Program-made: the position numbers and the translations under genes
Shown: piece by piece, positions 5,419-20,587 of the stretch
Layout of the letters: the number at the start of each line of letters is the position of its first letter
Numbering within the stretch: position 1 is the stretch's first letter
Notes under the pieces: model-generated
Database searches by the model: none
What the model was told of the DNA's origin: nothing
Seen by the model: only the letters and a program-made list of their open reading frames with translations
Virus record (IMG/VR): IMGVR_UViG_3300029142_000002
Span: 1 to 54,558 of that record
Source of the DNA: a virus
Taxonomy: Duplodnaviria > Caudoviricetes
Reading direction: 5' to 3' (one strand)
Length of the DNA: 54,558 bases

Positions 5419-5651
5419 CCCCAGCCGAAAAGCTAAATATGGTCCTTGTTAACGGTGGCCTACCTGAGCTTACAGAAGGCGAGGTTAAGCGTGCGCACCG
5501 TTATATGCGCCTGCTCAAGGCTGGTGTTATTGACACCATCGTTCAAAGGCGGGACGAGAAGGATAAGAATGGTGATTTGCGGATTATGGCAACGCAAATT
5601 ATAAAAGACCGCTCATTGTTACAGCTTGTTAAGGACAAGCTTGGTAATTGA
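5415..5651 (+). CDS. Hypothetical protein
   Basis: ATGA overlap with the previous stop; ATG at 5415 is in frame with the listed ORF. Confidence 0.6.
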   Translation: MTPAEKLNMVLVNGGLPELTEGEVKRAHRYMRLLKAGVIDTIVQRRDEKDKNGDLRIMATQIIKDRSLLQLVKDKLGN

Positions 5652-5781
5652 AACATATGTGCATTTAGTGTATATTTAGAACTGCAGGACGGGCACACGT
5701 AAAGCGTGAAAACCTGTCTTGCTTGAAATTGACTATTAGTCCATAAGGGACGCTTTGCCAATCGGCGAGGTGTCCTTTTTT
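5652..5781 (+). promoter_or_regulatory. Putative late promoter and structured leader of the capsid gene
   Basis: AACATATGTGCA-N6-GTATATT, also seen near 41905; hairpin 5684-5722; 15-bp GU-rich hairpin with T-run at 5745-5781. Confidence 0.5.
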
Positions 5782-5787
5782 ACGTTT

Positions 5788-7665
5788 ATGGAAAATCTAG
5801 AATTGGATACAGTTGTCTGGTACGGTGGCGAAGTCAAAGCGCTAGACGACGAAGGGAAAGTAGGTGGCTATCTGGTACGCTTTTCAACAGCAAGCGACCC
5901 CGACTTAGCCGGTGACTACTTTACGAAAGATACCGACTTCGGTTTTGCAACCAAGTCCACTGTTCTTTATCACCACGGCATGGATAAAACCATTAAAAGC
6001 CGCGATTTGGCAGTTGGCGAGCTAAAGATTGATGATGTAGGTGTCTGGATTGAAGGTCAGCTCAAGATGCGTGATGAGTATGAAAAGGCAATATTCGAAA
6101 TGGCAAAGGCGGGTAAGCTCGGCTGGTCATCTGGTACGGCTTCTCATCTTGTATCTCGCAAATCGGTAGGCAGCGCCACCGAGATACTGTCGTGGCCGCT
6201 TGGCTTAGACGCAAGCCTCACCCCTACCCCATGCGAGCCACGTACGCAGGCTATTCCCTTAAAATCACTGAATATCGAAGGTATTTCACTCGAAGTGCCT
6301 ACAAACGCAGAGCTTGAAAGCTCAGAGACAGAGAATGCAGAGGTTGATTCGCTATCGACGGACATTCCTGTAGTAGAAGAAAGCAATGCGGAGCCAACAG
6401 CATCGGCTAACGATGCAACAACCGCAGAACAACAAATGGAAAATACCACACCGCAGGCTGACGACCAGGTGCAGGAAACCCCTGCTATTGAGGTTGAAAA
6501 GCCCGCAGAGACTAAGTCTCAAGAACCATCAAGGATTATCGTTCCTACGCAGAACGTTACTATTCCCCTTGATCAGTACAACGCGCTTATCCAGCAGGAA
6601 GCAAAAGCTTACTCGCAAGAGCCTAAGCGCATCGTTAAGGCGTCCCACGACATTTCTACAGCGAACGTTAACCTGAAGACAGGACTTGGCGACAGCGAAC
6701 AGAAATCAATCGCACACTGGATAAAAACCGGTGACTGGGGCGCAGTAAGCCACATGAAAGCAACCAACGCCACAGGGCAGCAGGTTCTTTCAATCAAGGC
6801 TTCTAATGATACCGACATGAACGTTGGCACTGCTGCCGATGGTGGAAACGCTGTTCCTACGGGGCACTTTCAGAACATCGTAGCGCGCCGTGATGAAATG
6901 ATGCTGGCTAACCGCCTAGGCGTTCAAAACATCCCAGGCGTTGGCACTACTGTTAACGTGCCTGTTGATGCAGAGGATGACGGCGAGTTCGTTTCAACGG
7001 CAGAAGCAGCAGCTAACGACCGTGACGCTCCAGCGCTCGGTACGGTAGCGATGACGCTGGCCAAGTACACGAAGCGTGTAGAATTTAGCGACGAACTACT
7101 GCAGGATGAAGATAGCCGCCTCATGTCATTCATCGAGAACTTTATCTCTCGTGGCATGGCGAAGACGCACAATGATCTTTTGATCACTGAAGTCGAAACC
7201 AACGGCACAAGCCTCAAGTCCTTTGCAGGCACAGCCGCAATCGCAGCCGGTGAGATTCAGGACATCACATTCAATGATAACCTGGCCTACTACCTGGATG
7301 ATTCTGCCTCTGTAGCATGGGTTACACGCCCTGCGACATATGGAGAGATCATCTCTATTCAGGGTAATGAGTTCATTTACGACACCAATCCACAAGGATC
7401 TAGTGTCGCAACCAATGGCGCCAAAGGCATTTTGGCTCAGTATCCGGTGCATTTCTCGAACAAGGTTGAGACGCTTGCCATAGGCAACAAGTCGATCCTG
7501 TTTGGTAACTGGTTCTATGTAGGTGTTCGTAACGCTCCTGAGTTCCAGGTGCTGCGCGATCCTTACTCAGCAGCCACCACAGGCCAGCTTCGCCTTCACT
7601 ACTACTTCCGCACGGTGTACAAAGTACTCCAGGCCGAAGCAATTGGGTACGGCGAACAAGCATAG
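5788..7665 (+). CDS. Prohead protease - major capsid protein fusion (HK97 fold)
   Basis: N-terminal protease (DLAGDYF, VLYHHG, LGWSSG, DASLTPTP), acidic linker, HK97 capsid motifs (GGNAVP, ILFGNW, VLRDPYS). ATG at 5788 preferred to TTG at 5755. Confidence 0.92.
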   Translation: MENLELDTVVWYGGEVKALDDEGKVGGYLVRFSTASDPDLAGDYFTKDTDFGFATKSTVLYHHGMDKTIKSRDLAVGELKIDDVGVWIEGQLKMRDEYEKAIFEMAKAGKLGWSSGTASHLVSRKSVGSATEILSWPLGLDASLTPTPCEPRTQAIPLKSLNIEGISLEVPTNAELESSETENAEVDSLSTDIPVVEESNAEPTASANDATTAEQQMENTTPQADDQVQETPAIEVEKPAETKSQEPSRIIVPTQNVTIPLDQYNALIQQEAKAYSQEPKRIVKASHDISTANVNLKTGLGDSEQKSIAHWIKTGDWGAVSHMKATNATGQQVLSIKASNDTDMNVGTAADGGNAVPTGHFQNIVARRDEMMLANRLGVQNIPGVGTTVNVPVDAEDDGEFVSTAEAAANDRDAPALGTVAMTLAKYTKRVEFSDELLQDEDSRLMSFIENFISRGMAKTHNDLLITEVETNGTSLKSFAGTAAIAAGEIQDITFNDNLAYYLDDSASVAWVTRPATYGEIISIQGNEFIYDTNPQGSSVATNGAKGILAQYPVHFSNKVETLAIGNKSILFGNWFYVGVRNAPEFQVLRDPYSAATTGQLRLHYYFRTVYKVLQAEAIGYGEQA

Positions 7666-7680
7666 TAATTGAGGGACAAC

Positions 7681-7698
7681 GGGAGCCTTCGGGCTCCC
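7681..7698 (+). terminator. UUCG-tetraloop hairpin after the capsid gene
   Basis: GGGAGCC-TTCG-GGCTCCC with only a weak U-tract, so it may be a stabiliser rather than a terminator. Confidence 0.5.
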
Positions 7699-7718
7699 AC
7701 CTTCAAAAGAGAAGCACC

Positions 7719-7892
7719 ATGAAAGTAAAGTGTGTTAGAAGCTGTTCAGGGCCTGGTATCAATCTCGCTTTTGGTCGTGAATATGATCTTACAGCGGAGC
7801 AGATCAAGGCTGTTGGCGCGTCGGTGGAGGTAATCGAAACCAAGAAGCCAGCGCCTAAAAAGGCACCAGCTAAAGCGGCTAAGAAGAAGTGA
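7719..7892 (+). CDS. Small Lys/Ala-rich head-associated protein (57 aa, not in the ORF track)
   Basis: Translated by hand as MKVKCVRSCSGPGINLAFG...KKAPAKAAKKK; typical position after the capsid gene; GTGA overlap with the next gene. Confidence 0.7.
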   Translation: MKVKCVRSCSGPGINLAFGREYDLTAEQIKAVGASVEVIETKKPAPKKAPAKAAKKK

Positions 7893-8428
7893 TAGACGTT
7901 ACCACCATAACGGCAGGAAGCAACCTTGTGTCAGTGCAGGAAGCAAAGGATTATCTAAACCTCGATGCGGATTATCCTGAGCTTGTAATGCTGATTAAAG
8001 GCGTTCAAGAAAAGGCAGAAGCCTACTGCGCGCGTAGCTTTACGAGTAGAACCCTTGAATTAAGGCTGGACTACTTAGAAAGCGATGTGCTAACGCTCCC
8101 CCGTTATCCGGTAACATCGATCACCTCTGTTAAGACGCTTGATGAGTCGGACGTTGAGACAACGATAGCAAGCTCAACCTACTACCTCGCTGACCAGGAG
8201 CGGCTCGTGTTTACCACGTCGCCAGAGGTTCAGCGTGACTTCGGCGGTTTGCTCATCCGTTTCGTGTGCGGCGATTCTACGCAGGCGCCCAGCTCTATTA
8301 AGGCGGGCATATTAAAAGCCGTGTCAACGGTATTTGAAAACCGGGAAGATTACGTGATCGGTTCAGCCGTTTCTCGTCTTCCTGATAGCTCAAAAACGTT
8401 CTTTGATACCTGGAGGACGCTATGCTAA
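7889..8428 (+). CDS. Head-tail connector (HK97 gp6-like)
   Basis: LVSVQEAKDYLNLD, AEAYCARSF, LPRYPVTSITSV, FENRE; synteny. Confidence 0.85.
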   Translation: MIDVTTITAGSNLVSVQEAKDYLNLDADYPELVMLIKGVQEKAEAYCARSFTSRTLELRLDYLESDVLTLPRYPVTSITSVKTLDESDVETTIASSTYYLADQERLVFTTSPEVQRDFGGLLIRFVCGDSTQAPSSIKAGILKAVSTVFENREDYVIGSAVSRLPDSSKTFFDTWRTLC

Positions 8429-8766
8429 GATCTGGTTCATTGCGTGAGACGCTGACGCTGCAAGTCAAGACAATCACGAAAGACCAGTATCACGAGAATA
8501 GCGAAACATGGTCAGATGTGACGAATGTGTGCGCAAGCGTGCAGCCGCTTGCTGCTAGCGAACAGGTGAAAGCGGATCGTCTAGAGACACAGCAGCGGCT
8601 TGTTATTACGATGCGCTATCGTACTGGCGTTACGGTCAAAAACAGGTTTACGCATAACGATTGCGGCACTATTAAAGCCTACGACATTGTCAGTGTCAAC
8701 AATCGAGATGGTCGAAACCGGGTCCTTGACATTGTAGCGCTTTACGAGCAAGACAATGCGGTATAA
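8422..8766 (+). CDS. Head closure/adaptor protein (SPP1 gp16-like)
   Basis: SGSLRETLTLQ ... ITMRYRTGV ... YDIVSV pattern; synteny. Confidence 0.85.
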   Translation: MLRSGSLRETLTLQVKTITKDQYHENSETWSDVTNVCASVQPLAASEQVKADRLETQQRLVITMRYRTGVTVKNRFTHNDCGTIKAYDIVSVNNRDGRNRVLDIVALYEQDNAV

Positions 8767-8768
8767 CT

Positions 8769-9221
8769 GTGGCAAGCTTTAGAGTTGAAGTCAAGGGTAT
8801 TGAGGCGGCAAAAAAGAAGCTAGGCGCCGAAGCTGATAAGTTTCTAAGGGAGGCTGACCGCAAGTTTAAGGTTGCTGGCACGCGCATGGAGTTTTATGCA
8901 AAGTCTAGTGCTCCTGTTGATACCGGTTTTCATAGGCGCAGTATTAGACACGTGCCCAACTCGCCTTTCTTGTCAACCATACTGATAGCTGCAGCTAAAT
9001 ATGCCTCGGTTCTTGAGTTCGGTTTTTTTGGCTTTGTCTCTGTCTCAGCGCATACGCGCGTGATCACACAGGCTTTCGGTAGGCCACTATCAGGACCTGT
9101 TCAAGTTCAGGTAGATAGCCACATAAGGCCAATGAGCAGACCAGCAAGGCCGCATATCAGGCCAGCAGCAGAACGTGCTTTAGAGCAGCTAATAACAGAT
9201 TTGCAAGGTATTCAGATATGA
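8769..9221 (+). CDS. HK97 gp10-like neck/tail protein
   Basis: APVDTG, YASVLEFG and ARPHIRPA motifs. Confidence 0.85.
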   Translation: MASFRVEVKGIEAAKKKLGAEADKFLREADRKFKVAGTRMEFYAKSSAPVDTGFHRRSIRHVPNSPFLSTILIAAAKYASVLEFGFFGFVSVSAHTRVITQAFGRPLSGPVQVQVDSHIRPMSRPARPHIRPAAERALEQLITDLQGIQI

Positions 9222-9631
9222 GATCTGCAAAGCTAGCATTACAGGATGCAATAGGTGATGCCATTAATGCGCAGTTCACTACTGATTCGATCAGTGCTAC
9301 CGCTGTTACTAATCCCGAGCAAGGCGGATCTATGCCGCTTGCGGTGATTGGTCAAGACAACGAGGACGATAGTGGCACCACTAAAGATCAGGATGCGAGC
9401 TCTATCGCCCATAACATCTACCTGCATAGCACAAGCATAGTAGAGGTCAAACAGATGGCAGATTCGGTGCTTCAGGCGGTGGGACCAGGAGAGACAAAAT
9501 TAAGCCTTGGCGCGAGCTTCTACGAGGTAGGACGCAAGCTAGAGGCAAACGATTTAACAACAGAGCGCAGGCCAGAGGGTGATATCTACAATGCTCTTGT
9601 TAGGGTGCGCTATCAAATAGGTCATAGGTAA
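9218..9631 (+). CDS. Tail terminator/completion protein (DUF3168-like)
   Basis: Size and position before the tube gene; PLAVIG motif. Confidence 0.7.
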   Translation: MRSAKLALQDAIGDAINAQFTTDSISATAVTNPEQGGSMPLAVIGQDNEDDSGTTKDQDASSIAHNIYLHSTSIVEVKQMADSVLQAVGPGETKLSLGASFYEVGRKLEANDLTTERRPEGDIYNALVRVRYQIGHR

Positions 9632-10119: not shown

Positions 10120-10380
10120 GTGATTTTTATGCTCGTTCAGGGTGGAGACCTGGAGTATTTCAAAAGGCACTTGAAAGAATATTTCAACGCCGATTACAGT
10201 TTGACAAAAGCTGTTAGAATAGAGTTCACCGATCCTGGTGACGGCAATAAGTGGCCTAACGTTCATATGACGCTAACGAAGGACACCAAGCCGGAATTAA
10301 AGGTCAGGTTTAGGCGTGATCATTTCCAGGCAGAGATCTACGACAAAGACGACAATCTTTTATACGGTAGTAAGCAATGA
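10120..10380 (+). CDS. Hypothetical protein
   Basis: Fills the gap between tube and chaperone genes; ATGA overlap with the next gene. Confidence 0.55.
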   Translation: MIFMLVQGGDLEYFKRHLKEYFNADYSLTKAVRIEFTDPGDGNKWPNVHMTLTKDTKPELKVRFRRDHFQAEIYDKDDNLLYGSKQ

Positions 10381-16000: not shown

Positions 16001-17596
16001 GGCAATGATGGTGCGGGAATATTTGTAGGGCATTCTACGCTGCTTGCTGTGCAAACGGTCGTGAACAACACCGTTTCGAGCAATGGCGTTGATACGGGCA
16101 ACACGAACGAGAACCGCGCAGGGATAACGCTAAAGAATATATTTGCTGGCACCATTACCGGCAATACGACAAGCTTTAACGGCTCTTACGGTATGTTTTT
16201 CGACGTCGTAAAGAATACGGCGCTATCTGGCAATACAGGTACAGGAAACACGCTGGGCTTTCTGAATACGCGCGCGCAAAAGGTAAGCGGCGTGTACAAT
16301 GCTATCGAGTACGGAGCGCTACAGGCGGGCAATAACGAGTCAGGAACGCTTGCGGAGCTGATCAGCGCAGCAGAAGAAGGATCTGTCATCGAGCTTCCTC
16401 ATGGCGACTACATGTTAGAGTCTAGCGTTGCCATTAACAAGGCTGTTACTATTCGCGGGCAGGCTACGAAAGAATCTACAGGCACAATAGGTACGCGCAT
16501 CGTTGCTGCGGCAAGCCTGGATAATCCCTGCTTTGTTATTAGCGCTTCAGGCGTAAAGATAGAGCGCGTCAACTTTATCGGCGATTCTTTGCAGGCTGGC
16601 AATGCACACGGCGTTGAGTGGTCCTCTGGCAGCGACGGCGAGCTAAGGCACTGCGTAATAACCGGCTTTATAGGAACGGGGCTCCGCATTAATAGCGGCG
16701 TGACTGATATAACCGCCTATGACGTGCGCGTAGATTCCTGCAGCGATAAAGGTATGTTTATCCAGGGTGATGATTGCATCATTGACCGCTGCAAGGTGAC
16801 GAATAACGGCACAATCGGTATTCTTACCACAAACGCCGACGATCTGATTGTCTCGCGTTCCTTTATCAGCAGCAACGGCACTGATGGCGTTCAGATGCAG
16901 GGTGGCTTTCATAACATAGTCACTGACTGCCACATCAAGCTTAATGACCAGAATGGCATCAATATTCGCTCAGGTGATAACCACAGCGTACAGGGCTGCC
17001 ATATTAACTGTAACGGCGCGGACACGGGAGCGGCAACGGTAGAACGCGCGGGCGTGTATGTGCGCGAGGGCAACAAGCACCAGGTTAACAATAACCACAT
17101 CGGTGACAACCAGGCAAGTGCTACGCAGCTCCATGCCGTGGCTACCGGTGACTTGTTAAATAGCGCTCACATTATCGGCAATACCGGTGAGGGCAATGCG
17201 ACTGCCTTTTTCAACCTCGATTCTACGAGCGCTGGCGATCTCGATATCGATCTGGACCACACTGAAACGATTGATCTGGCGAGCTTAAATGCTAGCACAA
17301 GCACCACAGAGGCCATAACAATAGCTGGCGCGCGTCCTGGCGACCGCGTAACGTTAGGTCCGCCCAGCAACTGGGATATGGATGTACAGTTTTGGGGCTA
17401 TGTGTCGGCAAATGACACGTTAACGATCAAATTCTACAACATATCTGGAGGCGCTATCAACCAGGCGTCAGGTGACTGGAAGATAGGTCTATCAAGGCGA
17501 GAAGGAGCAACGGCCAGCGTACCCCCTGCTACTGGCTTGACTGCTCTTACTATCGTCAATTTCAGTAATGCTAATCTATTAACACAAGCTGATTAA
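13043..17596 (+). CDS. Tail tip/hub protein fused to two right-handed beta-helix (pectate-lyase-like) domains
   Basis: Hub-like N-terminus (VWSGFIDP, FQATDRLSVL), GAKGDGTTDD motif, many PbH1-like N-x-x-x-G-I repeats. Confidence 0.8.
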   Translation: MAFVTKYTISKYNHQTSTTWNAHIQEDGATFDSNLAPGPSPISINYTCDSSEPDWVVAPSVATISFVDDSSGKLVEFFNSGTDQRYKLLIQEGSTTVWSGFIDPESYRTVPYKENYVSTFQATDRLSVLRNSSFKDGALFYEGQERFSTILAQCLDKTGLDLDMATHSQRYSYLASNSLDEEDDPLYYHTVDQSVFLDSQGNAYSCWTVLINVLAAWGLQLFQAQGKWCIYERERNVSAILPYTFNSWNYTSAGAQDTPVLSTVNAKIEVSDDSADELFFHEGLRGGAEVAIGQADFTYCQGDIDQIFSNLDFDTDDNLSDNWTIVGVPALDNDAHEGDNSVDLGADWQLSPNSDGALHYIHQSAITSVSSATGYKFRIKLRLKMPERLDLPSGREAYWYFKFKVGSNFFKWSDTTWTGTDTLNEIPIYNYIQTADWSFDFTFTTPVLDGLSGTPYMEFRNVVEDDPGSGSQTQFSILLDTITFDLINPSSQVVKRYSKTSATISGTTNGEIKNIGVSYFGEGPLDLYPGAIHQKDSTDSDVGIATDWKLTVPSSATGHSFDRLTAERKIVQFGSPARYYDGPIAHKGTAASTEVRPENQIQIERPDSTTIDECMWYRSLTWKPADPQNNIKASWCAINDDSFTTVITVNALDEIDEEGNAISIANSVVSVVSNTQLETVESETALQALSVGDTSQAVIMQSYNSGQREGAGTFVKDSTDTSSTTNDITIFASTDGKRIHRVGSEYPWAVQWAGAKGDGTTDDATALSDIIAAAAGGAITLPPGRYVVDSTITIDGQALSMIGQQSSYYKDDGRTGFNATPSGAVIMSGSSLTGPIFKIQDTTTTNEEFSPIHFENIHFIGNGTTDTHAIQVIGGSNVQVKNCNITGFTSDGFKSETSTVGNTNQPVTIKLLGSTFEGNGGNGASLDCQSSIIDDCIFVDNTSGGLLAVETSVANTFSRNTFSSNDGYGLKVAGLGGSVISENLSSGNDGAGIFVGHSTLLAVQTVVNNTVSSNGVDTGNTNENRAGITLKNIFAGTITGNTTSFNGSYGMFFDVVKNTALSGNTGTGNTLGFLNTRAQKVSGVYNAIEYGALQAGNNESGTLAELISAAEEGSVIELPHGDYMLESSVAINKAVTIRGQATKESTGTIGTRIVAAASLDNPCFVISASGVKIERVNFIGDSLQAGNAHGVEWSSGSDGELRHCVITGFIGTGLRINSGVTDITAYDVRVDSCSDKGMFIQGDDCIIDRCKVTNNGTIGILTTNADDLIVSRSFISSNGTDGVQMQGGFHNIVTDCHIKLNDQNGINIRSGDNHSVQGCHINCNGADTGAATVERAGVYVREGNKHQVNNNHIGDNQASATQLHAVATGDLLNSAHIIGNTGEGNATAFFNLDSTSAGDLDIDLDHTETIDLASLNASTSTTEAITIAGARPGDRVTLGPPSNWDMDVQFWGYVSANDTLTIKFYNISGGAINQASGDWKIGLSRREGATASVPPATGLTALTIVNFSNANLLTQAD

Positions 17597-20587
17597 ATGG
17601 CATTTACTCATAGCGACTGGAACAAGACCGGTTGCACCGCTTCGGCAGATGGTACGCTGACCGAAGATACGAATAGCAACAGGCACAGCTTCTATCAGGA
17701 CATTCAATCTTTGATAGATACAGAAGGCTTAGGCACTTCGGCAATCCTTAAGGCCAAGGTTACGCCGATTGGTCGTACACGCGCCTGGATTGGATGCAGG
17801 CAGAATAACGGGTTCTTCCAGCAGACATTCCTGCTCACTGGTAGCGGATCGATTGAGACCAGCGGCAGCAACGTTACTAGCGCAACGATTGACGCAAACG
17901 GCGACGGCTCCTATACCTGCAAGGTTGTCTATAGCGGCACGTTCAGTTCTACCAATACGGTCTTTGCTGTGGGCGCTATGATTAGCGACAATACGCAGAC
18001 CTATACAGGCACCGGTATTGCTGCGATTAAGGTAGAGGAACCACAGCTAATTAAGGGCACGACGGATATTGATTTTGTGTCTACCGATGACAGGACGATC
18101 TACTACGATTCGGAGACGGGCGACGGCTCGCAGGATGCGACGATGCCAGCGAGCAACAAGCCTAGCCAGATCGAGCCACTATTCATATCCTCCACCGGTA
18201 GTGATGAGCTAACAATATCAGACTTTACCTATGATGCTGACGATCTAACCGTCAGCTGCCTCGTAGACTGGAACGGCAATACGTCAGCGGTCAAGACGCT
18301 AGCAAAGCACTGGGATGGATCAAGTCAGAATGCATGGAAGGCTTATTTAACAACAGATGGCAAATTCACTGTAGACATTAGCGACGATGGCAGCACTACA
18401 GACAAATCATATGTAGCGGTAAAGGCGCTTGATACAGACGAAAAAACGCTATGCTCTTTTACCTGGGATGGTACGGATTTAAAGCTTTACTATAATGATA
18501 TTGAACTGACTACCGCAGCAGGCGAACTAACGAAAACGACAGACAACGCAATAAGCGGCGACCTGCATAATTCAACAGATAGCATCAGGATCGGCGATGA
18601 TCACTATGGTAAGTATTATGAGTTTAGGATATACGACGGCGCAGCAACGGGCGCAGAGATAGCGTCTATCGCCTCTGGCTTTGGCGTCTCTGGCCTTCCT
18701 GATGGCACGACACCGGGCGGCGGTGGCGGCGGCGATCTTCCGTCAAATGCCGCAGATATGATACAGTGGATAAAGGATCAGGGATATTTAGACAGTGATA
18801 TCTTTTATATAAATAACTCTACGGGTAGTGATTCGAACTCGGGCACGTCAAGTGGTGATGCATGGGCAACGATTGGCAAGGCAGCATCAAACTTAACGGC
18901 TGGACAAGCCGTTTTTATCAGTGGTGCAGGCGGCAGGTTTTACGAGCAAGTCACGCCACAAAATAGCGGTTCCTCTGGCAATCGGATTATGTACGTGGGT
19001 GACCCTGATAACCCCTGCATTATTGATTCTAGCGAGCTTTTTACATCAAGTGGAGGAAGCAATTGGACCAGCGAGGGCGGCGGCATGTACAGCGCCAGTT
19101 ATTCAGCCACGCGTTACTTCTCTGATGAAGCTGCATACTTCGCTCAGTCGCCCGGTACGGGACTGGTACCTCTGTCTACCTTTATGACGCATCAGGTCAT
19201 TTATAATGATGCGCAACTCGTTCGAAAATCTACCTCCGACCACACAGTAGAGCCTAGTAGCATGGAGCAAGGTGAATGTTGGTTCAAGACGACGGGAAGC
19301 AGTGACAGTGCATTCAAGTCACCTACTGAAGTTTGGGTTAGGCTGCCGGGTGATATCGACCCAGATACGGTTGATATGAGGATTGGATCTGATAAAAAAT
19401 ACCTTTTTGACTGGCACGCAAATACATGGGAAGAAGGTTTTCCCGGTGCTAATGACAACGGCAGCGGTAACGCTAGCGGCAGAGACCATTTAGCGCTCAT
19501 TAACATACATCTGAAGTTTGGCTGCTGTATCCGTAAGCGTGGACCTTTATCAATTCGGGGCACTGGTTGGTGGCTTAGATGGTGTTCTATAAGTGACAGC
19601 AACGCATATAGCTTTACCATTTATGGCACAAATCACACTGTAGAAAATTGCAAGTTTATCAATAGTGGGTGCGGGCCTGCAAGGATGGAGTACTGCCAGA
19701 ATACTAGCGGTACAACCTTGTTAGATAAATGCCTCTACAAGAACGATAATATTCATAGCTTTCCTGAAAGCTGGGATGCTGGGTTTAAAATTAGTCACAG
19801 TGGCGACGGTGGCACAACTAAATGGACGAATAGTCATTGGTATCAGTCGGGTGCGGTAGGTATTTGGTGGGATATTTTTAATGGAGATAATAATGGTACA
19901 GGTGAAGCCTTTCTGGTTGAGCATTGCATATTTGAGGAGCAAGGAAGGCACGGAATATTTGTTGAGCATAACAGCGAAAACGTTGTTATCAAGCACTGCG
20001 GAATTTGGAAGACGAAGTTAACGCAGGAAGGAAACCACAACCACAAGCTTGGTACTGGCGTCCGCATTGCAGGCGCTGGCCTTTGCACATTTGAGAACAA
20101 TGCTATTGTGCAGAACGATGGTATTGGGTGGTACAGTAAAGCGGGACAAGACGGGCGCGGGCCGAACAATCAAGACACAATCAGAAACAATGTCTTTATC
20201 AATAATAACCAGGATGGCACACATGATATTGATAGGTGCGAATTCTTCGGCGGTGATGATGTAGACGAGCCTGGTACTTATCCGTGGAGCAGCTCAACGA
20301 TTGACGATAACGTATTTTTTAATACCCTCCCCTCTGGCGTCAACTATTTTGTTGAGGCGAATACCAATTCAGGATGGGTGGCGAATGACACCATTAGCTG
20401 GTTCGAGGACTCAAGTAGAACAAACGGCAGTGGAAATGCGATAGCCGCAAGTGCTGCTGCTGTTGTGCAAGATGAGACAGACAGAAAAGAGTTCTATGTG
20501 ACGGTCGGCAGCTATACGAGCAAAGGACCACAAAGCTTTACGCATTACGAGGACTTTACAGATACAGGTTGGACCATACCCTCTTAG
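17597..20587 (+). CDS. Tail spike/receptor-binding protein: CBM-like + LamG-like + beta-helix
   Basis: FTWDGTDLKLYYN and YEFRIYD (LamG), poly-Gly linker, GSDSNSGTSSGDAWATIGKA (DUF1565-like), beta-helix repeats. Confidence 0.75.
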   Translation: MAFTHSDWNKTGCTASADGTLTEDTNSNRHSFYQDIQSLIDTEGLGTSAILKAKVTPIGRTRAWIGCRQNNGFFQQTFLLTGSGSIETSGSNVTSATIDANGDGSYTCKVVYSGTFSSTNTVFAVGAMISDNTQTYTGTGIAAIKVEEPQLIKGTTDIDFVSTDDRTIYYDSETGDGSQDATMPASNKPSQIEPLFISSTGSDELTISDFTYDADDLTVSCLVDWNGNTSAVKTLAKHWDGSSQNAWKAYLTTDGKFTVDISDDGSTTDKSYVAVKALDTDEKTLCSFTWDGTDLKLYYNDIELTTAAGELTKTTDNAISGDLHNSTDSIRIGDDHYGKYYEFRIYDGAATGAEIASIASGFGVSGLPDGTTPGGGGGGDLPSNAADMIQWIKDQGYLDSDIFYINNSTGSDSNSGTSSGDAWATIGKAASNLTAGQAVFISGAGGRFYEQVTPQNSGSSGNRIMYVGDPDNPCIIDSSELFTSSGGSNWTSEGGGMYSASYSATRYFSDEAAYFAQSPGTGLVPLSTFMTHQVIYNDAQLVRKSTSDHTVEPSSMEQGECWFKTTGSSDSAFKSPTEVWVRLPGDIDPDTVDMRIGSDKKYLFDWHANTWEEGFPGANDNGSGNASGRDHLALINIHLKFGCCIRKRGPLSIRGTGWWLRWCSISDSNAYSFTIYGTNHTVENCKFINSGCGPARMEYCQNTSGTTLLDKCLYKNDNIHSFPESWDAGFKISHSGDGGTTKWTNSHWYQSGAVGIWWDIFNGDNNGTGEAFLVEHCIFEEQGRHGIFVEHNSENVVIKHCGIWKTKLTQEGNHNHKLGTGVRIAGAGLCTFENNAIVQNDGIGWYSKAGQDGRGPNNQDTIRNNVFINNNQDGTHDIDRCEFFGGDDVDEPGTYPWSSSTIDDNVFFNTLPSGVNYFVEANTNSGWVANDTISWFEDSSRTNGSGNAIAASAAAVVQDETDRKEFYVTVGSYTSKGPQSFTHYEDFTDTGWTIPS

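Follow-up and report, generated by a model that had tools for sequence, protein, structure and literature searches.

How several depolymerase spikes are mounted on one phage tail matters in practice for host-range engineering, and the known solutions are N-terminal anchors and short N-terminal peptides. In chaperone-usher pili, one subunit's strand completes the fold of the next subunit (donor-strand complementation), and the pilins, whose Ig fold is incomplete, are unable to fold alone. Among phage receptor-binding proteins (RBPs), the anchor-branch systems of G7C (gp66/gp63.1), K1-5, and the Klebsiella KP32-type phages are thought to hold the second RBP on the first via a short conserved peptide with a minimum of 7 residues, according to the available excerpts of their description (PMC6872550). 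The GTA_spike_fiber domain, which also occurs in the RcGTA head spike fiber, is another point of comparison. The RcGTA fiber binds capsular polysaccharide, as stated in the accessible part of the source (PMC10218006); in structure 6TB9 this fiber protein, Rcc01080, was resolved for residues 2-10 only and its domain was not, as far as the excerpted text reports (PMC7296036). Here, we analyzed a viral DNA stretch of 54,558 nucleotides (IMG/VR record IMGVR_UViG_3300029142_000002; hereafter, the window), in which two adjacent tail spike genes divide the opening motif of such a domain between them.

Two Adjacent Tail Spike Genes in the Window

The genes P0001 and P0002 (Table 1) are located in the tail module, and both products carry beta-helix/depolymerase signatures (pectate-lyase, PHROG tail-spike). 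P0001 starts with a tail-attachment part, followed by two blocks of right-handed beta-helix (residues ~753-1019 and 1167-1313), a small C-terminal domain, a linker, and a tail with the residues NLL. Its matches include Pfam Beta_helix (1.7e-31), NosD, and Pect-lyase, as well as PHROG EPS depolymerase / tail spike; a T4gp10-like docking domain was absent among its Pfam and PHROG matches. The beta-helix of P0002 scored slightly below the PF13229 cut-off (1.1e-5; 25.6 against 25.9 bits) and stands out better in its homologues P0004 and P0010. The idea that the tail contributes a strand to the P0002 LamG domain was rejected, since the LamG_3 match of P0002 is complete. In P0043, a relative with the canonical arrangement, LamG_3 starts at profile position 27, and the N-terminal strands there seem to be part of LamG.

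Table 1. Coordinates of the two spike genes, their junction, and the domains of the second spike in the window
Feature	Coordinates	Strand	Basis
P0001, first tail spike gene, 1517 aa	13043..17596	+	ORF list, translation
P0001 last 32 residues REGATASVPPATGLTALTIVNFSNANLLTQAD, linker and conserved tail	17498..17593	+	Alignment of 5 tails
P0001 stop/P0002 start, TAA+ATG	17594..17599	+	TAA 17594-17596, ATG from 17597; sequence read
P0002, second tail spike gene, 996 aa, MAFTHSDWNKTGCT	17597..20587	+	ORF list, translation
P0002 CBM-like beta-sandwich, GTA_spike_fiber-type, residues 1-165	17597..18091	+	NF048003, AF2, Foldseek
P0002 Laminin_G_3 (ConA-like), complete, residues 200-356	18194..18664	+	Pfam PF13385, 1e-8, profile 2-151 of 151
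P0002 right-handed beta-helix, presumed depolymerase body, residues 657-806	19565..20014	+	Pfam PF13229

The P0001 C-terminus (...FSNANLLTQAD) is followed by TAA and, with zero spacer, by the ATG of P0002 (MAFTHSDWNK); the codons across the junction are AAT GCT AAT CTA TTA ACA CAA GCT GAT TAA ATG GCA TTT ACT CAT AGC GAC TGG AAC AAG. The exact NANLLTQAD-TAA-ATG abutment given in a preliminary description of this locus was confirmed in the sequence. Any start codon that directly follows a stop shares its frame, and the common reading frame thus carries no added information. No Shine-Dalgarno-like motif was found within 25 bases upstream of the P0002 start; one is also missing at 12 of 19 window starts examined, which makes this analysis uninformative on coupling. 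P0001 ends with the opening half (NLLxxxx), and P0002 starts with the other half (xFxxxxWxK), of a widespread domain motif. The complete opening NLLxxS[EQ]xFxxxxWxK is not present in one chain: P0002 has xFxxxxWxK only, and NLLTQAD sits in P0001.

The Divided Motif Opens a CBM-Like Domain

The NLL...W motif, named in the preliminary description as the opening of phage fiber CBM-like domains, is real: it marks the beginning of the NCBIfam NF048003 GTA_spike_fiber domain, which is a CBM-like beta-sandwich. The regular expression N[LIVM][LIVMF]xxxxx[FWYL]xxxxW matched 15 instances in 10 of 26 distant relatives (P0021-P0046) and 197 instances, 187 of them unique, in P0021-P0165 (consensus ...LLIEEARTNLLTYSE). 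On canonical relatives, NF048003 scored 193.7 bits in P0043 (residues 61-249 = profile 1-182) and 398.3 bits in P0031. The latter begins MPRQNLLTQSNTFTDAVW (MPRQNLL), with nothing upstream, and NLL therefore belongs with the downstream domain in canonical proteins. The GTA_spike_fiber set further includes Rcc01080 (6TB9 chain F3), E217 gp45 (8ENV_K), Pa193 gp46 (9B45), and the gp17 tail fiber (9OCC_C); the motif is carried by Rcc01080 (LLLEASATNLLPNSAQFEAASWGK), 8ENV_K (LLSSSPRTNHVLTS), and 9OCC_C (NTSKNVILYNTNLTNVVW).

The P0002 domain starts at profile position 14/15 of 182, without the LIEExRT-NLLxxS opening. Alone, it matched NF048003 with 29.5 bits (residues 2-156 = profile 15-166, E 9e-7), and with the 7-residue tail plus X the score was 31.4 bits (profile 8-166, a gain of +1.9 bits), both under the curated cut-off of 36 bits. 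Scores in the family were 23.6 bits in L014 and 33.1 bits in L015 (two of the related loci compared below), 32.5 bits in P0007, 23.9 bits in P0020, and 43.5 bits, above the cut-off, in P0014; the downstream domain of a third locus, L001, had no NF048003 match. An alignment profile for the P0002 N-terminal domain matched 6tb9_F3 at 7.3e-15, and the domain end EEPQLIKGTTDIDFVST aligns with WGAQLEEGSxPTSYIxT, a closing strand of the GAQLExG...YIxT type. Judged by sequence, the P0002-type domain is a distant subfamily of NF048003 GTA_spike_fiber (E about 1e-7).

Profile coverage was gained across the junction when the halves were joined, with our own HMM, with NF048003, and in a six-frame NF048003 search that reads through the TAA (17570-18064 = profile 7-166). 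With our own HMM, built from 15 motif instances, the P0002 domain alone scored 98.0 bits (profile 20-188), and the sequence joined without TAAATG scored 109.9 bits (profile 8-188), a gain of +11.9 bits and 12 profile positions; the gain was +5.9 bits with M kept and +4.7 bits with X at the stop. As a control, 1763 other ORF ends were joined to the same domain and scored with this HMM, yielding a mean gain of +0.6 bits (sd 1.7). Gains of at least 10 bits occurred in 4 of the 1763 joins, including that of the real P0001 tail, which ranked second. The match of the joined tail and domain exceeds chance. The NLL-to-W distance in the relatives is one residue longer than in the window, with own-HMM gains of just +3.4 to +7.1 bits, and the tail brought no NF048003 gain in L014 (23.6 to 22.2 bits); the exact NLL-to-W spacing is particular to the window, where MAFFT pairs PATGLTALTIVNFSNANLLTQAD with PVTGQCLGLLIEESRTNLLLWSQ gap-free.

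The tails were also ranked among 2197 ORF ends by a PSSM made from 187 canonical pre-domain segments. With the full matrix, the tails of the four orthologues ranked 1st, 2nd, 4th, and 8th, the window tail being 2nd; minus the NLL columns, the five tails ranked 11, 86 (window), 138, 398 (L014), and 595. The canonical residue is E or K at position -4 and R or E at -2, and the F-x-N pattern of the tails is not canonical. Outside the NLL columns, the similarity of the tails to the canonical pre-domain segment is weak. An 86-aa ORF (10120-10380) ending in DDNLLYGSKQ was treated as a chance occurrence (rank 2189 of 2197).

Conservation of the Split and of the NLL Tail

The split was compared at four loci (the window, L014, L015, and L001), which are related and not independent. 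The search for further loci gave one full-length locus among viral contigs, two among metagenome contigs, and none among genome contigs; a blastn search against a phage collection gave no match, and the split was not seen again independently of these loci. P0046, which seems to start without NLL, was rejected as such an example and is probably a truncated gene call, because most of the 17 related viral loci inspected (22 returned) carry the motif in frame upstream within the same ORF.

P0001 orthologues are P0012, L014:1253-5896, and L001:793-5430. At all four loci, the upstream orthologue ends with NLL plus 3 or 4 residues, the downstream protein starts with M-x-[FL]...W, and the tail and N-terminal lengths together differ from the canonical NLL-to-W distance by no more than 1-2 residues. 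The order of P0001-type and P0002-type genes is kept in L014 (TAA GCC ATG, +3 nt, in frame) and in L015 (TAA AA ATG, +2 nt, out of frame); in L001, ~570 nt with two small ORFs separate the two genes. TAA is the stop at all three abutting junctions, and in-frame stops lie 0, 1, 9, and 25 codons 5' of the downstream starts. The same split with different junctions implies that the split is old, not a recent 6-base cut, and that the exact abutment in the window is a local detail; the earlier proposal of a clean fission by TAAATG is not supported.

All 18 close members of the downstream family (P0002-P0011, P0013-P0020) share the start point, and the NLL motif is present in none of them; the 17 homologues of P0002 (956-1191 aa or fragments) start identically. 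This is the sole family found to begin at profile position 13-16. Fused homologues, as suggested in the preliminary description, were sought and not found: a tail-region search at 834-2655 aa gave one homologue, P0012, which ends in NLLQQA, and in an all-length search the domain lies at residues 4-10 of the nine closest matches (E of 1.1e-15 or lower).

In the alignment of five tails, P, F, N, N, L, and L are invariant, in P0001 at 17561-17563 (F), 17567-17569 (N), and 17573-17581 (NLL). The pattern F-x-N-x-N-L-L is kept in four orthologues with overall identities of 48, 41, and 31% as well as in one 73-aa ORF, a conservation to be read with the fact that the tail was itself selected by its NLL motif. 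Its invariance in such diverged orthologues suggests that the tail has a function. The NLL codons differ among the four loci (AAT CTA TTA, AAC CTT TTA, AAC TTA CTC, and AAC CTG CTC) and the amino acids are constant, which points to selection on the protein. The 73-aa ORF lies in L001, where the two tails (NLLYYG and NLLLYG) are most alike each other and one acceptor domain is present despite two NLL-tailed ORFs. The 3' ends of two successive L001 genes resemble each other over ~33 nt, and each contains the next ATG: …AACCTGCT…TATGGCTAA and …TATGGCTAG.

Structure Predictions for the Tail and the Domain

AF2 modeled the P0002 domain alone with a pLDDT of 80.4 and a pTM of 0.80, as 14 strands plus one helix, with residues 8-153 confident. 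Foldseek matched this model to 8env_K (7.6e-5) and 9b45 (1.4e-4), both with probability 1.00, followed by CBMs. In a cis fusion with the TAA read as Q, residues 1-39, i.e., the entire tail and junction, had pLDDT <50 and formed no strand, so nothing in the model shows a missing strand or packing of the tail on the domain; the underlying alignment had 12 rows, four of the canonical family (P0043, P0030, P0042, P0046), with the opening segment in P0043 and P0042 only. Complex predictions of the 32-residue tail against the CBM-like domain alone (P0002 residues 1-172), with one copy per chain, gave 0.62, 0.24, and 0.02 in three runs, below the mark set for a verdict, and weigh neither for nor against docking. 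A required strand donated by the P0001 tail is not supported by the AF2 models of the lone domain and the cis fusion, as the domain is predicted to fold alone and the tail is disordered in cis; the modeled acceptor is complete without the tail, unlike the incomplete acceptor of donor-strand systems. The strand complementation put forward in the preliminary description is therefore left with mixed results: the coverage gained across the junction agrees with it, and the folding of the domain alone speaks against it.

Evaluation of Alternative Explanations

The best explanation overall, to which we give a slightly better than even chance, is an old conserved fission whose C-terminal NLL peptide has been kept by selection for docking of the second spike. 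Its parts differ in strength: a conserved fission giving two proteins is highly probable, whereas the step by which the NLL peptide would hold the second depolymerase spike on the first is plausible but somewhat doubtful. P0001 and P0002 would be two separate depolymerase-type tail spikes of an uncultured tailed phage, and an old gene fission, or a module junction, would have divided the opening motif of a CBM-like domain of the GTA_spike_fiber type. Profile positions 1-14 (...hhhxFxNxNLLxxx) would thereby have gone to the C-terminal tail of the upstream spike and positions 15-182 to the N-terminus of the downstream one. The tail may have been retained as a short docking or assembly peptide that holds the second spike at the distal end of the first, possibly in the place of the canonical opening segment on the CBM-like domain, and the abutting stop and start may give coupled translation of both partners. 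A split-domain "plug and socket", in which the 14-residue opening segment re-associates in trans with the P0002 domain and stacks the depolymerases end to end, is rather unlikely.

The strongest rival is a real fission in which P0001 itself needs the NLL tail, for instance to cap its C-terminal domain or trimer or to be recognized by an assembly factor, and P0002 attaches by other surfaces. This is consistent with a domain that AF2 renders complete and confident without the tail, with a tail undocked even in cis, and with L001, where the acceptor gene is two ORFs off and the 73-aa ORF bears the same tail beside a single acceptor domain. However, NLL goes with the downstream domain in canonical proteins such as P0031, and the motif would need to have gained a new function to act in cis within P0001; the near-canonical length sum at all four loci also argues against this reading, which we consider unlikely.

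It is distinctly less probable that the P0001 family ends in an unrelated motif, F-x-N-x-NLL, which by chance both resembles the opening motif of the domain and lies beside a late-starting domain. The PSSM ranks minus the NLL columns (86 for the window, 398 for L014), the non-canonical F-x-N, and the restriction of the exact ungapped fit to the window agree with such a coincidence, but the full tails of the four orthologues rank 1st to 8th of 2197, the window tail is second of 1763 for the gain on joining, the adjoining gene is from the sole family found with this late start, and the MAFFT alignment is gap-free. The NLL-coding end might instead be a shared DNA boundary for swapping receptor-binding cassettes, conserved as DNA, which the similar gene ends with embedded ATGs in L001 would fit; NLL codons that differ while the amino acids do not make this very improbable. 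The weakest alternative, the ~2,500-aa fusion with a nearly intact domain proposed earlier, produced by some ribosomes reading through or hopping at the TAA, fits the in-frame junctions of the window and L014 but is extremely improbable, given the out-of-frame L015 junction, the two ORFs intervening in L001, the fall of the own-HMM gain from +11.9 to +4.7 bits with two residues added, the failure to find a fused homologue, and TAA, which is not known as a leaky stop, at all three abutting junctions.

Comparison With Known Systems

If docking by the tail is true, the severed opening of one protein's domain, carried as a C-terminal peptide by the protein encoded before it, would provide a new, sequence-recognizable docking rule and a natural split domain used for assembly; re-association in trans, if true, would be a mode of docking that has not been described among phage receptor-binding proteins. 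A limited literature search for split-gene strand complementation in bacteriophage tailspikes returned no relevant paper, which leaves its absence in print unproven. Even without a docking role, the locus indicates that folding is still predicted for the very common NLL..SE.F....W.K domain when it begins 14 residues late, a case that helps domain-boundary annotation of tail fibers.

The concept is like that of donor-strand complementation in chaperone-usher pili, but the P0002 acceptor domain is modeled as complete without the tail, and the sequences are unrelated. The N-terminal domain of P0002 belongs to the GTA_spike_fiber group, distantly by sequence and also by its predicted fold; in the 197 canonical instances a single chain contains both the opening segment and the domain, whereas here the opening ends the previous gene. 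The arrangement of two adjacent depolymerase-type spike genes is shared with the anchor-branch systems, in which, as far as the available excerpts of their description go, the second RBP carries the conserved peptide N-terminally and binds through it to a T4gp10-like domain in the first RBP (PMC6872550). In P0001/P0002, by contrast, it is the first RBP that bears the peptide, at its C-terminus, and the second RBP offers its N-terminal CBM-like domain as a candidate acceptor.

Two abutting tail spike genes

In the window, the first tail spike gene (P0001) runs directly into the second (P0002), with the junction reading ...AAT GCT AAT CTA TTA ACA CAA GCT GAT TAA ATG GCA TTT ACT CAT AGC GAC TGG AAC AAG. 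The abutting TAA-ATG reported in the preliminary description is thus borne out, and with no base between stop and start the two genes can only share one frame. A major tail protein is encoded upstream of the pair and an endolysin downstream; the record has 54,558 bases and a completeness estimate of 66%. Profile matches mark both products as resembling tail spikes or depolymerases. In P0001 they show two right-handed beta-helix blocks (Pfam Beta_helix 1.7e-31, NosD, Pect-lyase), alongside PHROG matches to 'EPS depolymerase / tail spike'; P0002 has a weaker Pfam Beta_helix match and a complete Laminin_G_3 domain (residues 200-356). The P0001 blocks are separate (residues ~753-1019 and ~1167-1313) within its single 1517-aa chain; counted together, the two genes hold three depolymerase-like bodies. 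Full-length relatives of P0002 were recovered from three related loci (L014, L015, and L001), and in each a P0001 orthologue lies upstream.

Spike genes, junctions, and small ORFs in the window and three related loci
Locus	Feature	Coordinates	Length	Terminal sequence	Junction
Window	P0001 ORF	13043-17596	1517 aa	C-terminal ...TIVNFSNANLLTQAD	
Window	P0002 ORF	17597-20587	996 aa	N-terminal MAFTHSDWNKTGCT	
Window	NF048003 six-frame match	17570-18064			single TAA within
Window	Small ORF	10120-10380	86 aa	C-terminal ...DKDDNLLYGSKQ	
L014	Upstream spike			C-terminal ...VQIQFTNNNLLFDA	TAA GCC ATG, 3-nt spacer, in frame
L014	Downstream spike			N-terminal MAFTPTGSNW	
L015	Upstream spike			C-terminal ...VKIQFTNYNLLQQA	TAA AA ATG, 2-nt spacer, out of frame
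L015	Downstream spike			N-terminal MPLDPTHSLW	
L001	Upstream spike		1546 aa	C-terminal ...VELEFTNHNLLYYG	followed by two ORFs
L001	First small ORF	5426-5647	73 aa	C-terminal ...DIRFRNPNLLLYG	
L001	Second small ORF	5640-5921	~93 aa		
L001	Downstream spike	6001-9591	1196 aa	N-terminal MAFDPTQPEW	

Many window genes abut or overlap (19 starts, 933 to 24736), and a loose Shine-Dalgarno-like motif occurs within 25 bases upstream of 7 of these 19 starts, a hint that the host relies only weakly on SD sequences.

The motif and its domain

Residues 1-180 of P0002, searched against 1.8 billion representatives, gave 36 matches. The domain lies at the extreme N-terminus in the 9 closest (E 1.1e-15 or better) and is mostly internal or behind an N-terminal region in the more distant ones. 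The pattern N[LV][LV]xxS[EQ]xFxxxxW opens the domain in 10 of 26 distant matches (15 instances). In a larger set (P0021-P0165) 197 instances were found (187 unique; consensus RFDHDPVTGESLGLLIEEARTNLLTYSE, then DFxNAAWTK), so the domain-opening motif NLLxxSExFxxxxWxK given in the preliminary description is real. The domain is NCBIfam NF048003 'GTA_spike_fiber', positions 1-182 of which correspond to residues 61-249 of the canonical relative P0043, with NLL at 8-10 and F at 16. By sequence, the RcGTA head spike fibre Rcc01080 has the same domain (6tb9_F3, 7.3e-15, alignment profile) and the motif segment LLLEASATNLLPNSAQFEAASWGK; E217 gp45, Pa193 gp46, and a gp17 tail fibre carry it as well. The solved RcGTA structure resolves only fibre residues 2-10 (PMC7296036) and so does not show whether the domain needs the tail. 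Since the canonical relative P0031 starts with MPRQNLLTQSNTFTDAVW, NLL goes with the domain after it rather than with whatever precedes.

Another canonical relative, P0046, has an apparent domain start without NLL; it is probably a truncated gene call, since the canonical LLIEPQRTNLL is in frame upstream in most of 17 related viral loci inspected (in the set L195-L213). For P0043 and P0047, Laminin_G_3 is matched from profile position 27 onward, and 'ITFTRASSGTY' stands N-terminal to the spike-fibre domain; a ConA-like sandwich may thus have taken in the CBM-like domain as an insert. P0002 has a complete LamG domain, placed after the CBM. Two P0002 homologues, P0010 (1191 aa) and that of L001, carry ~200 extra residues (…IVIEAES…HTLxxGGRSNN…) between LamG and the beta-helix, and this insert has the look of an additional carbohydrate-binding module.

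Folding of the domain and position of the gene boundary

AF2 modeled residues 1-180 of P0002 (6-row alignment) with pLDDT 80.4 and pTM 0.80, the first strand starting from W8 and residues 1-7 poorly defined; Foldseek with this model retrieved E217 gp45 and Pa193 gp46, then CBMs. In a cis fusion (32-residue P0001 tail, Q at the stop, domain; 12 alignment rows, four canonical-family, among which only P0043 and P0042 include the opening segment) the domain reached pLDDT ~90, and residues 1-39 stayed below 50 without secondary structure. A required strand donated by the upstream protein, as proposed earlier, is therefore unsupported.

On NF048003, P0002 residue 2 aligns to position 15 and the P0001 tail NLLTQAD to 8-14, placing the gene boundary between 14 and 15 of the 182-position model. 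An ad hoc HMM from 15 canonical motif instances scored the P0002 domain at 98.0 bits (profile positions 20-188) and the halves joined without TAAATG at 109.9 bits (8-188); the gain was 5.9 bits with M kept and 4.7 bits with X at the stop. The curated NF048003 score rose from 29.5 (15-166) to 31.4 bits (8-166) with the 7-residue tail plus X, and its six-frame match spans the stop. When 1763 other ORF ends were joined to the domain, the mean gain was +0.6 bits (sd 1.7); 4/1763, the true P0001 tail among them, gained at least 10 bits. Thus the domain folded completely alone in AF2, but the joined sequence did gain profile coverage across the junction in three tests (ad hoc HMM, NF048003, and six-frame).

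Conservation of the P0001 tail

The full-length orthologues are 48, 41, and 31% identical to P0001, and the five-tail alignment has invariant P, F, N, N, L, and L (F-x-N-x-N-L-L). Across 115 sequences (114 fetched loci plus the window) the tail is confined to the four orthologues and the L001 73-aa ORF, apart from three short ORFs fitting a loose pattern without NLL. The tail looks to be under selection. One alternative to the docking role proposed below gives it a role in cis only. Another is chance resemblance of the tail to the motif, on which a PSSM bears that was derived from 187 canonical segments preceding the domain and applied to 2197 ORF ends: the orthologue tails ranked 1st, 2nd, 4th, and 8th, and only 11th to 398th once the NLL columns were removed, so homology beyond NLL is suggestive but not proven. 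MAFFT did align PATGLTALTIVNFSNANLLTQAD with PVTGQCLGLLIEESRTNLLLWSQ gap-free. The tail of the L001 73-aa ORF was not significant (258th; 595th without NLL columns). A third alternative takes the tail for a recombination-junction sequence; its codons vary between loci, which argues that constraint acts on the protein.

The L001 73-aa ORF, a predicted ORF with no PHROG match, ends in F-x-N-x-NLL-x-YG like the 1546-aa spike, and in both, ...TATGGCTA(A/G) contains the next gene's ATG; ~33 nt are common to these junctions. The end of the 86-aa ORF directly after the window's major tail protein recalls these tails (NLLYYG/NLLLYG), probably by chance; it fits the PSSM poorly (2189 of 2197), has no PHROG match, and is probably a gene in the tail-assembly-chaperone position.

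An old split with variable junctions

The split is common to four related loci including the window, which are not independent of one another. Because in-frame stops lie just upstream, the downstream proteins cannot have longer N-termini, and the P0002 database homologues share the start point in 17/17 and carry the motif in 0/17. As to a fused form, the P0001 tail region searched against proteins of 834-2655 aa matched only the P0001 orthologue P0012, and an all-length search of P0002 1-180 gave no close internal copy. From these comparisons, the gene split is old and conserved and the exact TAAATG junction is not. The differing junctions exclude a recent 6-base insertion, and the clean cut by TAAATG described earlier gives way to spacers of 0, 3, or 2 nt, or two intervening ORFs. 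The window owes its perfect ungapped motif fit to a P0001 tail with one residue more, and a P0002 N-terminus with two residues fewer, than in relatives. Readthrough of the P0001 stop, the other earlier proposal (~2,500 aa), cannot be the conserved mode because the frame relation varies between loci. The split observation is therefore confirmed and its first interpretation partly supported.

Proposed mechanism and comparison with known systems

P0001 and P0002 are two proteins from abutting genes, whose translation is probably coupled; an old fission split a GTA_spike_fiber-type domain within its opening motif to give the pair. The favoured though tentative reading is that the NLL tail retained on the first spike serves as a short peptide for docking or assembly of the second. 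The logic resembles that of anchor-branch RBP systems with their short conserved peptides (PMC6872550), but the polarity would be opposite: here the first RBP would bear the peptide at its C-terminus, and the second would offer the socket at its N-terminus.
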